From NCBI RefSeq assembly GCF_056746865.1, contig NZ_CM163382.1: a DNA stretch of 64,000 nucleotides; one strand, written 5' to 3'. Below, in pieces: positions 11,104-19,669 of this stretch. The notes beneath the pieces were generated by a model. The model saw only the letters and a program-made list of their open reading frames with translations. It had not been told where the DNA came from and ran no database searches. A program made the translations under genes and the position numbers. Numbering within the stretch: position 1 is the stretch's first letter; every line of letters starts with the position of its first letter.

Positions 11104-11745
11104 TTAAACGCCGAACTCTTCGCGATAGGCCTTAACCGCCGCCAGATGTTCCGCCATTTCCGGCTTCTCTTCCAGGTAAGCAATCAGGTCTTTCAAGGTG
11201 ATGATAGAGATCACTTTGCAGTTGTAATCACGCTCAACTTCCTGAATTGCCGAAATCTCGCCGCGCCCCCGTTCCTGACGATCGAGCGAAATCAATACGC
11301 CAGCAAGCGTCGCGCCATTGGCCTGAATAATTTCCATCGACTCGCGGATCGCCGTTCCGGCGGTGATCACATCATCTACCAGCATTACGCGTCCTTGTAA
11401 CGCGCTACCAACCAGATTGCCGCCTTCACCGTGGTCTTTTGCCTCTTTGCGGTTAAAGCAGTACGGCAGGTCAAGGTCATGATGCTCCGCCAGCGCCACG
11501 GCGGTAGTGGTCGCAATCGGGATCCCTTTGTAAGCAGGGCCAAACAGCAGATCGAACTCAATGCCGGAATCCACCAACGCTTCAGCGTAAAAACGGCCTA
11601 ACAGTGCCAGATCGCGCCCGGTATTAAACAGCCCGGCGTTGAAGAAATAGGGGCTTTTGCGCCCGGACTTCAGCGTAAACTCGCCAAACTTTAACACCTG
11701 CTTGCTAAGCGCAAATTCAATAAACTGGCGCTGATATGGTTTCAT
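11104..11745 (-). CDS. pyrE: orotate phosphoribosyltransferase
   Basis: [38 protein letters not shown]; 213 aa; convergent with slmA, sharing a hairpin at 11070-11100. Confidence 0.95.
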
Positions 11746-11773
11746 GCCTTCGCTCCTCATCTTACTTTTCTAC

Positions 11774-11807
11774 AGACAAAATAAATATCCTCCGGCATAG
11801 CCGGAGG
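11774..11807 (-). terminator. pyrE attenuator hairpin with U-rich tract, ~30 nt upstream of the pyrE start
   Basis: Plus-strand cctccggcatagccggagg (11789-11807); on the pyrE-sense transcript it is followed by AUAUUUAUUUUG. Confidence 0.6.
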
Positions 11808-11809
11808 TT

Positions 11810-12520
11810 TTTCAAATGCGCCTATAAGGCTCTCTTACCAGCCGCGCCCTAACAGGCGCACACGATCTGACATTTGCATCCAACTTCGTTACTTACGGCC
11901 CGTAAACGGGCTGCCCGGATAGGGAATCGATAACTGCTCTCCCATTTTATCCTCTTCAAGCTGGTGCTTTATGTAATCCTGTATCTTCGCCGTGTTCTTA
12001 CCCACTGTATCGACGTAGTACCCTCTGCACCAGAACTCCCTGTTCCTGTATTTGAATTTCAAATCACCAAACTGCTCGTAAAGCATCAGACTGCTTTTCC
12101 CTTTCAGATATCCCATAAACCCGGATACGCTCATTTTAGGCGGGATCTCCACAAGCATATGGATATGATCTGCACAGCATTCAGCTTCCAGAATCCGTAC
12201 GCTTTTCCACTCACACAGCTTTCTCAAAATACTGCCTATTGCTCTACGCTTCTCTCTGTAGAACACCTGTCTTCGGTATTTTGGCGCAAAAACTATGTGA
12301 TATTTACAGTTCCATCGGGTGTGCGCTAAGCTCTTTTCGTTCCCCATTGGGACCCCCTTTTGATTTCTTGTTTGACACTTGCAGTTGCCAGACCGCAAGG
12401 TGTTTTAACAAATCAAAAGGGGTTTTAATAACTGGCTCAAAGCTGAAAGCTTTCCGGAACCCCCAGCCTAGCTGGGGGTTTTCTGTGCACAAAAAAAGGC
12501 GACTCATCAGTCGCCTTAAA
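11810..12520 (-). mobile_element. IS200-family insertion sequence (about 0.71 kb, ends approximate)
   Basis: Contains an IS200-type tnpA plus two hairpins at the rph-proximal end (aaggcgactgatgagtcgcc+T7, and aacccccagcctagctgggggtt). The rph-pyrE gap is 777 bp against about 68 bp recalled for K-12. Confidence 0.7.
11889..12347 (-). CDS. tnpA: IS200/IS605-family transposase TnpA (HUH Y1 type)
   Basis: MGNEKSLAHTRWNCKYHIVFAPKYRR...HIHMLVEIPPKMSVS matches IS200 TnpA; 152 aa from the internal Met. Confidence 0.9.
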   Translation of the reverse strand: MGNEKSLAHTRWNCKYHIVFAPKYRRQVFYREKRRAIGSILRKLCEWKSVRILEAECCADHIHMLVEIPPKMSVSGFMGYLKGKSSLMLYEQFGDLKFKYRNREFWCRGYYVDTVGKNTAKIQDYIKHQLEEDKMGEQLSIPYPGSPFTGRK

Positions 12521-12522
12521 AA

Positions 12523-13239
12523 TCAGTTTGCCAGCGCCGCCTTCTGCGTCGCTACAATGGATTCGATTCCCCCTCGGGCCAGCGCCAACAAGGTGAGTAG
12601 CTCTTCATGGGTGAACGGCTCGCCTTCTGCCGTTCCCTGCACTTCAATGATACGCCCGTCTTCGGTCATCACTACGTTCATGTCGGTCTCTGCGGCTGAG
12701 TCTTCAACGTATTCCAGATCGCAAACCGCTTCGCCGTTCACAATCCCGACAGAAACCGCGGCTACCATCCCTTTCATCGGGTTGGTTTTCAGCTTGCCGT
12801 TTTCCACCAGCTTCTGTAGCGCATCTGCCAGCGCCACGCAGGCACCCGTAATCGACGCGGTACGCGTGCCACCATCAGCCTGAAGCACGTCGCAGTCCAG
12901 CGTAATAGTGAACTCACCCAGCGCTTTCAAATCTACTGCCGCGCGAAGAGCACGGGCGATCAGACGCTGGATTTCCATGGTGCGTCCACCCTGCTTACCT
13001 TTCGCCGCTTCACGCGCGTTACGGGTGTGGGTAGAACGTGGCAGCATGCCGTACTCTGCGGTGATCCAGCCCTGGCCCTGACCTTTCAGGAAGCGCGGCA
13101 CGCCTTCTTCAATAGAGGCGGTACACAATACTTTGGTATCGCCAAATTCGACCAGCACCGAGCCTTCTGCATGTTTTGTATAGTTACGAGTCAGGGTAAC
13201 GGGACGCACCTGATTATTGCTACGGCCTGCTGGACGCAT
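12523..13239 (-). CDS. rph: ribonuclease PH (full length, no K-12-type rph-1 frameshift)
   Basis: [58 protein letters not shown]...; 238 aa with an intact C-terminus. Confidence 0.95.
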
Positions 13240-14294: not shown

Positions 14295-14336
14295 TATCAT
14301 GAGCTATCATAACGACGCAACAAAGCGCACAATATG

Positions 14337-14360
14337 CGTGTACATAGAGGTGTACATAAT
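14337..14360. repeat. left boundary direct repeat of the island (putative attL): cgtgtacatagaggtgtacataat
   Basis: 22 of 24 identical to 35327-35350; flanked by further TGTACA palindromes at 14365-14390. Confidence 0.6.
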
Positions 14361-14417
14361 GACTTTCATGTACATTGCTTTATGTACACACCCATATTCG
14401 ATATTCAGGTATTCGCA

Positions 14418-15677
14418 ATGCCAAAACTCACAGATATGCAGATCCGCGCATGGATAAAGGCGGGAGACAGATTTGATGGCAAGGCAGACGGCAACGGCCT
14501 TTATATTTGCTACCCCAAAAACTACACAGTCCCGTTCTGGCGATTCCGCTATAAGCTCGCAGGAAAGCAGCGGGCTATGGTTATAGGCTCTTACTCCGAA
14601 CTGTCACTATCAAAAGCCAGAGAAACAGCAAAAGAGCTGTCAGCCAGAGTTGCTCTTGGCTATGACGTAGCAGCAGAGAAACAGGAACGAAAAGCTGAAG
14701 CACTGGCAAAAATGGAGGCTGAGAAAAACGCCATGCGTGTTTCAGATCTGGCCTCCGAATACTTCGAGCGCCAGATACTTCCGAGATGGAAACATCCCGA
14801 TATCCTTCGCCGGAGAATTGATAAGGATATTAACCCCTGCATTGGGCATATGAAGGTGGAGGACGTTAAGCCACGCCACATTGACGACATGTTGAAAGGT
14901 ATCGTTGACCGAGGAGCACCAACGATAGCAACAGATGTATTACGCTGGACACGCCGTATCTTTGACTATGGGATAAAACGCCATGCTCTGGAGATAAACC
15001 CTTGTTCAGCGTTTGAAGTATCTGATGCTGGTGGTAAAGAGGTTTCCCGCGACCGTTGGCTAACTCGCGATGAGCTTATCAGGCTATTCGAGGCTATGCG
15101 CACCGCAAAAGGATTCAGCCGCCAAAACGAACTGACATTTAAGCTATTGCTGGCACTATGCGTTCGTAAGATGGAGTTATGCGCCGCACGATGGGAAGAG
15201 TTTGATTTAGATAGTGCTGTATGGCATTTGCCGGAAGAACGCAGCAAAAACGGGGACCCTATTGATATACCTCTACCTTCTCCAGCCGTTGAATGGTTGA
15301 GAGAGCTACACACCTTTTCATGTAATAGCGCATGGGTGCTTCCAGCCAGGAAGATGCAAAACAGAATGATCCCACATATTCAGGAAAGCACTTTACCCGT
15401 AGCACTGGCTAAGGTTCGCGCCGAAATGCCGGATGTGCCTAATTTCACGATTCACGACTTCCGACGCACCGCACGTACTCATTTAGCAGCGTTGGGTGTT
15501 GATCCTGTTGTGGCGGAACGATGCCTCAATCATCGCATTAAGGGCGTAGAGGGGATTTATAACCGCCATCAGTATTTTAATGAGCGTAAAGCAGCACTGG
15601 CACAGTGGGCTGATCTGCTGGTGGCACTGGAAAGCGGAAAAGACTACAACGTAACGCCTCTCAGAAGGGCGAACTAA
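14418..15677 (+). CDS. int: tyrosine recombinase, P4/CP4-57 integrase family
   Basis: MPKLTDMQIRAWIKAGDRFDGKADGNGLYICYPKN... with C-terminal HDFRRTARTHL...NHR...IYNRHQY catalytic region; 419 aa. Confidence 0.9.
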   Translation: MPKLTDMQIRAWIKAGDRFDGKADGNGLYICYPKNYTVPFWRFRYKLAGKQRAMVIGSYSELSLSKARETAKELSARVALGYDVAAEKQERKAEALAKMEAEKNAMRVSDLASEYFERQILPRWKHPDILRRRIDKDINPCIGHMKVEDVKPRHIDDMLKGIVDRGAPTIATDVLRWTRRIFDYGIKRHALEINPCSAFEVSDAGGKEVSRDRWLTRDELIRLFEAMRTAKGFSRQNELTFKLLLALCVRKMELCAARWEEFDLDSAVWHLPEERSKNGDPIDIPLPSPAVEWLRELHTFSCNSAWVLPARKMQNRMIPHIQESTLPVALAKVRAEMPDVPNFTIHDFRRTARTHLAALGVDPVVAERCLNHRIKGVEGIYNRHQYFNERKAALAQWADLLVALESGKDYNVTPLRRAN

Positions 15678-15902: not shown

Positions 15903-16268
15903 ATGATTGATGTCTTAGGACCGGAGAAACGCAGACGGCGTACTACACAGGAAAAGATCGCTATTGTTCAGCAGAGTTTTGAACCGGGAATGACGGTCTC
16001 CCTTGTTGCCCGGCAACACGGTGTGGCAGCCAGCCAGTTATTTCTCTGGCGCAAGCAATACCAGGAGGGAAGTCTTACTGCTGTGGCCGCAGGAGAGCAG
16101 GTCGTTCCTGCCTCTGAACTTGCTGCTGCCATGAAGCAGATTAAAGAACTCCAGCGCCTGCTCGGCAAAAAAACGATGGAAAATGAACTCCTTAAAGAAG
16201 CCGTTGAATACGGGCGTGCAAAAAAGTGGATAGCGCACGCGCCCTTATTGCCCGGGGATGGGGAGTAA
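15903..16268 (+). CDS. insC: IS2 transposase OrfA (InsC)
   Basis: [53 protein letters not shown] matches IS2 InsC. Confidence 0.9.
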
Positions 16269-17131
16269 GCTTAGTCAGCCGTTGTCTCCGGGTGTCGCGT
16301 GCGCAGTTGCACGTCATTCTCAGACGAACCGATGACTGGAAAGATGGTCGCCGCAGCCGTCACTCAGATGATACGGATGTGCTTCTCCGTATACACCATG
16401 TTATCGGAGAGCTGCCCACGTATGGTTATCGTCGGGTATGGGCGCTGCTTCGCAGACAGGCCGAACTTGATGGTATGCCTGCGATCAATGCCAAACGTGT
16501 TTACCGGATCATGCGCCAGAATGCGCTGTTGCTTGAGCGAAAAACCGCTGTACCGCCATCGAAACGGGCACATACTGGCAAAGTGGCCGTGAAAGAAAGC
16601 AATCAACGATGGTGCTCTGACGGGTTCGAGTTCCGCTGTGATAACGGAGAAAAACTGCGAGTCACGTTCGCGCTGGACTGCTGTGACCGTGAGGCACTGC
16701 ACTGGGCAGTCACTACGGGCGGCTTCGACAGTGAAACAGTACAGGACGTAATGCTGGGAGCGGTGGAACGCCGCTTCGGCAACGAGCTTCCGGCGTCTCC
16801 AGTAGAGTGGCTGACGGATAATGGTTCATGCTACCGGGCTAATGAAACACGGCAGTTTGCCCGGATGTTGGGGCTTGAACCGAAGAACACGGCGGTGCGG
16901 AGTCCGGAGAGTAACGGCATAGCAGAGAGCTTCGTGAAAACGATAAAGCGTGACTACATCAGTATCATGCCTAAACCAGACGGGTTAACGGCAGCAAAGA
17001 ACCTTGCAGAGGCGTTCGAGCATTATAACGAATGGCATCCGCATAGTGCACTGGGTTATCGCTCGCCACGGGAATATCTACGGCAGCGGGCCAGTAATGG
17101 GTTAAGTGATAACAGGTGTCTGGAAATATAG
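16226..17131 (+). CDS. insD: IS2 transposase OrfB (InsD), DDE integrase domain
   Basis: 301-aa ORF overlapping insC in another frame, as in IS3-family frameshifted transposases. Confidence 0.9.
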
Positions 17132-18835: not shown

Positions 18836-19669
18836 ATGAACATCGAAAAAAGCAGATTAATTTCTGAGGCCGCCCCTCATCTGAACGCCTCTCTGGGCAC
18901 AATTAACGGTAATGAATTTGCCGCAATTGTCCCGGTTATTCCTGGTCATATCGGTGGGCGTGAAACCAATATTGTTAGCGCAAAAGCGTTACACAAAGCG
19001 TTGGGCGTGGGAAAAGACTTCTCTACATGGATCACTGATCGCATCTCTGAATATGACTTCACCATTGGGCACGATTACTCAGTCCATAAAACAATTTCCC
19101 CAAATTTGGGGAAAAGCCCGAATGGCGCGGCTTACAGCAAGATTAAGCAGTCTGGCAGACCCGGCAAAGACTATCTGTTAAGTGTCGGAATGGCGAAAGA
19201 ACTGGCAATGATCGAACGCAATGATCAGGGTCGCGCTATCCGTCGTTATTTCATCCAGTGCGAGGAAGAATTACAGCGTAGCGTGCCTGAAATCGCCGCC
19301 CGCTATCGTCGCCAGCTAAAAGCCCGTATCAGTGCCGCAAACAACTTTAAGCCAATGTGCGATGCGCTGAATATGGCCCGTGCCGAGCAGGGGAAAACGA
19401 CGCAGCAACACCACTACACAAACGAGAGCAATATGATTTCTCGTATCGTTCTTGGTGGGCTAACTGCTAAGCAGTGGGCGCGGATAAATGGCTATTCTGG
19501 CGAACCTCGCGACCATATGAACGCAGAACAACTTGAGCACCTCTCATATCTCGAAAGCACCAATATCACGTTAATTGATATGGGCATGGAATATGAGCAG
19601 CGCAAAGGAGAACTCACCCGCCTGTCGCAACGCTGGCTCGCCAAGCGTCTGGAGGCGGTCCATGTTTAA
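18836..19669 (+). CDS. phage antirepressor-like protein (KilA-C/Ant-type C-terminal region)
   Basis: 277 aa; C-terminal segment ...GRAIRRYFIQCEEELQ resembles antirepressor proteins; assignment from memory. Confidence 0.55.
   Translation: MNIEKSRLISEAAPHLNASLGTINGNEFAAIVPVIPGHIGGRETNIVSAKALHKALGVGKDFSTWITDRISEYDFTIGHDYSVHKTISPNLGKSPNGAAYSKIKQSGRPGKDYLLSVGMAKELAMIERNDQGRAIRRYFIQCEEELQRSVPEIAARYRRQLKARISAANNFKPMCDALNMARAEQGKTTQQHHYTNESNMISRIVLGGLTAKQWARINGYSGEPRDHMNAEQLEHLSYLESTNITLIDMGMEYEQRKGELTRLSQRWLAKRLEAVHV

Follow-up and report, generated by a model that had tools for sequence, protein, structure and literature searches.

IS200C at the pyrE attenuator of the Escherichia coli rph-pyrE operon

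Does an insertion sequence (IS) that lies between rph and pyrE in Escherichia coli detach the pyrE attenuator from rph translation, or does it leave the attenuator in place and obstruct transcription further downstream? The question is raised by a 64,000-nt stretch of DNA (RefSeq assembly GCF_056746865.1, contig NZ_CM163382.1; hereafter the window, whose positions serve as coordinates throughout), in which the minus strand carries rph, an IS200-type transposase gene, tnpA, and pyrE (Table 1). The pyrE attenuator opens when uridine triphosphate (UTP) is limiting, and intrinsic terminators are rarely absolute. A first-pass annotation of the window had placed the IS between the rph stop codon and the attenuator, taken the hairpin nearest to pyrE (11789-11807) for the attenuator, assigned the hairpin and T7 tract that follow rph to the IS, and predicted that rph translation is uncoupled from attenuation while the IS-borne hairpin blocks read-through into pyrE.

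Position of the element relative to the attenuator

The anatomy was settled by aligning the region to the empty site of K-12 MG1655, which reads rph-TGA, TTTTT, AAGGCGACTGATGAGTCGCC, TTTTTTTT, GTCTGTAGAAAAGTAAGATGAGGAGCGAAGGC and the pyrE ATG, with T8 and then GTCTGTAGAAAAG after AAGGCGACTGATGAGTCGCC. The window matched K-12 through GTCGCC-T7, continued with 711 bp running from GTGCACAGAAAACCCCC to GGAGGATATTTATT, and then resumed with TT-GTCTGTAGAAAAG. Because the hairpin and T7 tract at 12491-12517 are present in the K-12 empty site, they are, on this alignment, the native pyrE attenuator and no part of the IS. A GC-rich hairpin with a U-tract a few nucleotides past the rph stop codon is what defines the pyrE attenuator, and this segment has both; its sole difference from K-12 was T7 instead of T8. 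The hairpin (free energy, dG, -14.7 kcal/mol; z -5.3) was terminator-like in the scan. By the same comparison the element, named IS200C in the RefSeq annotation of the same arrangement, sits in the distal, 3' edge of the attenuator T-tract, between the attenuator and pyrE. The host T residues at the site totaled 8-9, compared with T8 in K-12; a longer target duplication was absent, and a gain of 1 nt is indistinguishable from tract-length polymorphism or homopolymer error. The IS ends are uncertain by 1-2 T, because the target is T-rich and so is the IS right end.

The first-pass reading had in its favor that two hairpins with T-rich tails do exist, and that the pyrE-proximal one is separated from the pyrE start by roughly the native distance. 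The existence of both hairpins at the places given was upheld, while their assignment was the reverse of that proposed: the supposed transposon hairpin is the real attenuator, and the hairpin next to pyrE belongs to the transposon. The K-12 empty site has the rph-proximal hairpin with T8 and lacks the pyrE-proximal one. The latter was found at a constant offset in IS200C copies at five unrelated loci, and is also carried by IS1541 in Yersinia; the hairpin at 11789-11807 is therefore, judged from these copies, the IS right end and not an attenuator. It has a dG of -15.9 kcal/mol, is followed by AUAUUUAUUUU and is terminator-like on both strands. No E. coli empty site was seen that has the 11789-11807 hairpin or lacks the one at 12496-12517. 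Together, the K-12 alignment and the other IS200C copies place the insertion elsewhere than first proposed and refute the original arrangement.

The distance from the rph stop codon (TGA) to the attenuator hairpin is 5 nt and the U7 tract is kept, so the coupling between rph translation and attenuation is undisturbed, contrary to the predicted uncoupling, and UTP-sensitive, rph-translation-coupled attenuation presumably still works. The rph gene itself is full length, as had been stated. Its product has 238 residues and is identical to WP_001247093.1, compared with 228 residues in K-12, and the G run in rph is GGGGG here and GGGG in K-12 rph-1 (comparison with MG1655). Thus, the frameshift near the 3' end of rph and the truncated RNase PH that characterize rph-1 were not found. 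The rph-1 allele (Jensen 1993, in the passage of PMC5933015 that cites it) is likewise a lesion of this operon from which reduced pyrE expression is expected. In rph-1, however, the frameshift stops ribosomes early and uncouples the attenuator, whereas here rph is intact, coupling is kept and a reduction, if there is one, would come from sequence beyond the attenuator.

That an IS200-family element of ~0.71 kb lies between the two genes was borne out by the Pfam and NCBIfam scores of tnpA, the match of its 5' untranslated region (UTR) to STnc490 and the RefSeq name. The element has the features of the IS200 group: 1) a single-domain Y1 transposase of ~150 aa, whose translation shows the HIH motif and Y...Q, 2) a length of ~0.7 kb with one open reading frame (ORF), 3) a 5'UTR of the STnc490/art200 type, and 4) left and right subterminal hairpins that are unrelated in sequence, terminal inverted repeats being absent. 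The tnpA 5'UTR forms a stem-loop that sequesters the Shine-Dalgarno (SD) sequence, and the antisense art200 RNA is directed against this 5'UTR (PMC4513863). IS200 of Salmonella and IS200C of E. coli have the same length (~710 bp), a single Y1 gene, a left-end terminator hairpin, an SD-sequestering 5'UTR and a right-end hairpin; there was no structural difference from the present copy, which differs in its insertion site only.

Table 1. Features of the rph-pyrE region of the window, listed from rph to pyrE
Feature	Position	Strand	Evidence
rph, RNase PH, 238 aa, full length, wild type	12523..13239	-	NCBIfam TIGR01966 (RNase PH equivalog), 380.8 bits; identical to WP_001247093.1
Native pyrE attenuator: 9-bp hairpin AAGGCGACU/AGUCGCCUU (12496-12517) and U7 tract (12491-12497)	12491..12517	-	Same as K-12 intercistronic sequence
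IS200C, 711 bp (GTGCACAG...GGAGGATATTTATT), left end at 12490	11780..12490	-	Absent from K-12; same ends at five unrelated loci
IS left-end hairpin, IS nt 11-33	12458..12480	-	dG -18.7 kcal/mol
tnpA 5'UTR, STnc490 region	12357..12480	-	Rfam RF01405, 146.4 bits (gathering 56), model positions 1-124/124
tnpA, Y1 (HUH) transposase, 152 aa	11889..12347	-	Pfam PF01797 (Y1_Tnp), 130.6 bits, full-length model; NCBIfam NF033573 (transpos_IS200), 147.7 bits (cutoff 55)
IS right end: 8-bp hairpin CCUCCGGC/GCCGGAGG (11789-11807) and tail AUAUUUAUU	11780..11807	-	Same offset in all IS200C copies examined
Rest of native intercistronic region: 2 leftover T, GTCTGTAGAAAAGTAA, pyrE SD GAGGAG (11753-11758)	11746..11779	-	Collinear with K-12
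pyrE, orotate phosphoribosyltransferase, 213 aa, intact	11104..11745	-	NCBIfam TIGR00336, 240.6 bits; identical to WP_000806177.1

Recurrence of the insertion and choice of target

The rph-IS-pyrE allele was found in 15 of 5,426 complete E. coli genomes, in which a 1-kb query was fully covered; the other 5,411 were without the IS. Thirteen of the 15 carriers were fetched for sequence comparison and 14 occupied sites were examined in sequence, all of which had the IS in one orientation in the same T-tract. The IS copy in the window showed 0-1 differences from the copies in other carriers. Several IS variants were represented among the carriers, one of which had 22-24 differences from the rest and encoded a TnpA with a different accession. 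The carriers fell in five flank haplotypes that were 12-33 positions apart over 3 kb, and a single flank haplotype bore two different IS variants. Haplotype-specific single nucleotide polymorphisms (SNPs) were located within ~100 bp to the left and 110-200 bp to the right of the junctions. The economical reading of these sequences is that at least five independent insertions occurred at the pyrE attenuator. Spread of one ancestral insertion by recombination was considered and rejected, since haplotype SNPs are found as close as 100-200 bp to both junctions, which makes such spread unlikely, and since 5,411 of the 5,426 genomes are without the IS.

The number of T residues at the junctions also varied (7/4, 8/2, 7/3, 8/3 and, in strain M21170, T8GTT/2). 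These counts were dropped as a tally of insertion events, because homopolymer assembly error or slippage is possible, and the haplotypes and IS variants were used instead. Five genomes had identical 3-kb flanks and IS but different T-counts (7/4, 7/3, 8/3 and 8/2), and M21170 had an extra TTG (T8GTT) ahead of the IS left end; slippage, assembly error or separate insertions could account for the variation.

One haplotype and IS variant was common to isolates from the UK, Poland and Ecuador. Most carriers came from faeces, rectal swabs or wastewater, with two blood isolates and one urine isolate among them. The pyrE gene was intact in all carriers, and the PyrE protein was the common allele in those examined. 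Literature searches (IS200 with pyrE and rph; IS200C) found no paper describing IS200C at rph-pyrE. The element is catalogued and the insertion is present in public genome annotations, so that only the site is undescribed in the literature searched; this is a known element at a known kind of target and no new kind of biology.

The kind of target was apparent from five IS200C copies in other E. coli genomes, located behind zntB, metG, ybiR, mscK and amiC. At all five loci a GC-rich hairpin and a T-run directly preceded the IS at the 3' end of a co-oriented gene, and GTGCACAG abutted the T residues. For a wider survey, one genome per species was scanned for the 24-nt left-end hairpin, which gave 120 loci with 118 unique left-end flanks, among them ~57 IS1541 copies of Yersinia pestis together with loci from Vibrio, Brenneria, Edwardsiella, Pluralibacter, Mailhella, Bacillota and Oxalobacter metagenome-assembled genomes (MAGs). 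A perfect-stem hairpin with a T-rich tail ending exactly at the IS boundary was present in 90 of the 118 flanks (76%), compared with 64 of 12,000 random positions of those loci (0.53%) and 8.9% of all their TTNTT sites (binomial p ~2e-69); the flanks that failed this rule mostly had visibly imperfect hairpins. The distance from the last G-C pair of the stem to the IS was 6-9 nt in 81 of 96 cases, and the last five bases of the flank were T-T-N-T-T, with T in 113, 98, 74, 116 and 105 of the 118, respectively. IS200-group left ends thus have the family habit of inserting directly 3' of TTNTT, 6-9 nt behind a GC-rich hairpin. Intrinsic terminators, of which the pyrE attenuator is one, have this very layout, and the habit explains why IS200C landed there.

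The right end of the IS has the same shape, a hairpin followed by 9 nt ending in TTATT. At two Y. pestis loci (L084 and L131), IS1541 copies were arranged in tandem, with the left end of one abutting the right-end hairpin and ATATTTATT(T) of the other; the right end of the IS thus resembles a target in its own right. A partial Rfam match to the Yersinia small RNA Ysr202 on the plus strand of the window (11770-11812; 25.9 bits, far below the gathering threshold) covered only the terminator of that RNA and corresponded to the IS200/IS1541 right-end hairpin read antisense, followed by UUUUU, which suggests that Ysr202 ends in an IS1541 end.

Many of the surveyed copies were on contigs of phylogenetically remote MAGs (L020-L081; Mailhella, Bacillota, Oxalobacter, Peptococcaceae, Saccharibacteria and Elusimicrobiaceae) that hold the exact 24-nt hairpin. 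These hairpins were very often ~90 nt from the contig end, indicating that the IS is where assemblies break off. In the MAG copies the initial 10 nt of the IS varied by taxon, while the rule of a hairpin plus T residues in the flank still held.

A-rich tetranucleotides precede both hairpins of the IS. In IS608 the target tetranucleotide is read by a guide located 5' of the left-end hairpin, and by this rule the A-rich tetranucleotides would fit a T-rich target. The 'peel and paste' model of IS608 has in common with IS200C a left end that abuts a short specific target, the cleavage positions in IS200C being T-rich at both ends (TTNTT; right end TTATT). In contrast, the IS608 model is without the requirement or preference for a neighboring hairpin at 6-9 nt seen in the IS200-group flanks. 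The single orientation at the 14 occupied sites and the co-orientation with the upstream gene at the five other loci would fit a strand-specific 'peel and paste' mechanism for IS200C, a correspondence that is only indirect. The IS200/IS605 family inserts into the lagging-strand template. The rph-pyrE locus is at 3.815 Mb in K-12 and oriC is near 3.93 Mb; at this locus the insertion strand, which carries the hairpin and T8, is the lagging-strand template, as in the IS608 paradigm.

The terminator-targeting rule is not new; the present data make it quantitative. Terminator-like stem-loops flanking IS1541 were reportedly noticed by Odaert et al. in 1998. An enrichment of terminator-like sequences just upstream of IS200/IS605 elements was described in a 2026 preprint (10.1101/2025.07.22.666184).

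The closest parallel is in Yersinia, where IS1541 disrupts the pheL-pheA region (PMC3082878). In Y. pestis NCTC5923 the locus (L103) consisted of the pheL leader (…FFFAFFFTFP*) and antiterminator, a 710-bp IS1541 (1569-2278), the attenuator hairpin GCCTCCCAAGCGGGAGGC with T7, and pheA. As at pyrE, an IS200-group element occupies the terminator hairpin of a biosynthetic attenuator. However, this IS1541 is inverted relative to pheA and inserted at the face that the terminator hairpin presents on the complementary strand (tail TTTCTTGTT), and it splits the leader and antiterminator from the terminator, whereas in E. coli the IS is co-oriented with pyrE and lies downstream of an intact attenuator. 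The E. coli pheA and pyrBI attenuators were queried with chimeric junctions of flank and left end, in the sense orientation and with one insertion point each, and within that scope no IS200C was found at either in the 5,426 complete genomes. Both stand in contrast to pyrE in this search despite a suitable geometry of hairpin and T-run, the pheA tail even ending in TTATT. Since intrinsic terminators draw IS200-group elements, collateral hits on transcription attenuators can be predicted; the pyrE attenuator in E. coli, with at least five independent hits, and the pheA attenuator in Yersinia are examples.

Expected effect on pyrE expression

With the IS behind the attenuator, transcripts that read through the UTP-sensitive site would first have to cross the terminator hairpin of the IS left end, then ~460 nt of tnpA that are poorly translated and exposed to Rho, and lastly, before pyrE, the right-end hairpin and its U-rich tail. 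Expression of pyrE would be scaled down, yet remain pyrimidine-regulated. We consider it probable, with some reserve, that the allele is a polar pyrE hypomorph with a lower ceiling, buffered by feedback and still UTP-regulated. A fall in UTP would act on the feedback attenuator, which precedes the block, and could thereby increase read-through and offset part of the loss; this partial compensation would explain the persistence of the allele in nature. The reduced read-through and possible pyrimidine limitation predicted by the first-pass annotation may therefore hold through polarity of the IS downstream of the attenuator, although not through uncoupling.

Evidence for such polarity comes from IS200. 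At its left end, the hairpin at nt 12-34 acts as a bidirectional rho-independent terminator against impinging transcription, and its tnpA promoter is weak, starting near nt 40, with a sequestered SD and repression by art200 and Hfq (PMC4513863, on whose summary the statements on terminator efficiency made here rest). The hisD984::IS200 insertion of Salmonella, likewise in an operon upstream of biosynthetic genes, was polar according to the passage of PMC4513863 that cites Lam and Roth (1983); it disrupts a coding sequence, however, while the present IS is intercistronic and behind a feedback attenuator. A promoter scan over 11600-12700 found no site that could drive pyrE. A lenient sigma70 scan (at least 8 of 12 matches, spacer 16-18) of the sense strand from the 3' end of rph to the pyrE ATG also found none, a search that weak or non-sigma70 promoters may escape.

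Several points weigh against a polar hypomorph brought about by target choice. 1) The left-end hairpin may terminate weakly in the sense orientation, where its tail is UUCCGG and has no U-tract, 2) growth in serum or blood is reported to fail in pyrimidine-synthesis mutants (PMC13328217), so that the two blood carriers, and with them the urine carrier, argue that pyrE output is not severely reduced, and 3) the association with hairpins could partly reflect the survival of harmless insertions and not targeting alone. The persistence of the allele in several lineages also speaks for tolerance.

The same observations, together with the geographic spread of related carriers, bear on the possibility that the insertion is nearly neutral, because read-through is efficient or because enough transcript comes from the weak tnpA promoter or from a cryptic one, leaving pyrE expression and pyrimidine prototrophy near normal. 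The sense tail of the left-end hairpin and the blood and urine isolates are compatible with this explanation. It is countered by the described polarity of IS200 and the terminator at its left end (PMC4513863), by the right-end hairpin, which with the sequence behind it is terminator-like, and by the failure of the scans to reveal a promoter-like site. The absence of IS200C from the pyrBI and pheA attenuators in the 5,426 genomes, within the scope of that search, is moreover compatible with such insertions usually being costly. We judge near-neutrality to be a less likely outcome than the polar hypomorph, at perhaps a chance in four.

At the other extreme, three serial barriers and no visible promoter could mean that pyrE is silenced and that the carriers are pyrimidine auxotrophs living on salvage in the gut, in keeping with the predominance of faecal, rectal and wastewater sources. 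The blood and urine isolates (cf. PMC13328217) and the common PyrE allele in the carriers examined contradict this. In addition, it is established that terminators of this type seldom stop all transcription and that the upstream attenuator can open under UTP limitation. Silencing therefore appears improbable. More speculative still, and in our view doubtful, is the idea of a true insertion hotspot: IS200C would strike the pyrE attenuator again and again, each time producing a pyrE hypomorph buffered by feedback, a natural counterpart of rph-1 that arises in another way, and some host-associated lineages would retain the allele since they profit from mild pyrimidine limitation. In this view the transposase would read the terminator (hairpin and TTNTT at 6-9 nt) as if it were the right end of the IS.

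If the insertion does lower pyrE output, ~0.3% of sequenced E. coli have a natural pyrimidine-limitation allele, which would be relevant to growth phenotypes, to sensitivity to fluoro-orotate and fluoropyrimidines, and to the choice of 'wild-type' strains.

Neighboring sequence

The flanks and the IS of the window were identical to those of strain S1-CAM-04-C, and the window has in addition an island next to yicC. This island of ~21 kb (14230-35418), which K-12, S1-CAM-04-C and 98210 lack, is located between yicC and the dinD side. An ORF for a P4-type tyrosine integrase (14334-15677) stands at its start, IS2 follows at 16226-17131, and the island further includes a 784-aa ORF with a weak match to P4-family primase and several large ORFs without a family match. 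PADLOC returned one weak match only, PDC-S22, for the ORF at 18836-19669. The carriers E118 and M21170 also have an integrase at yicC and match the window only to ~15665.

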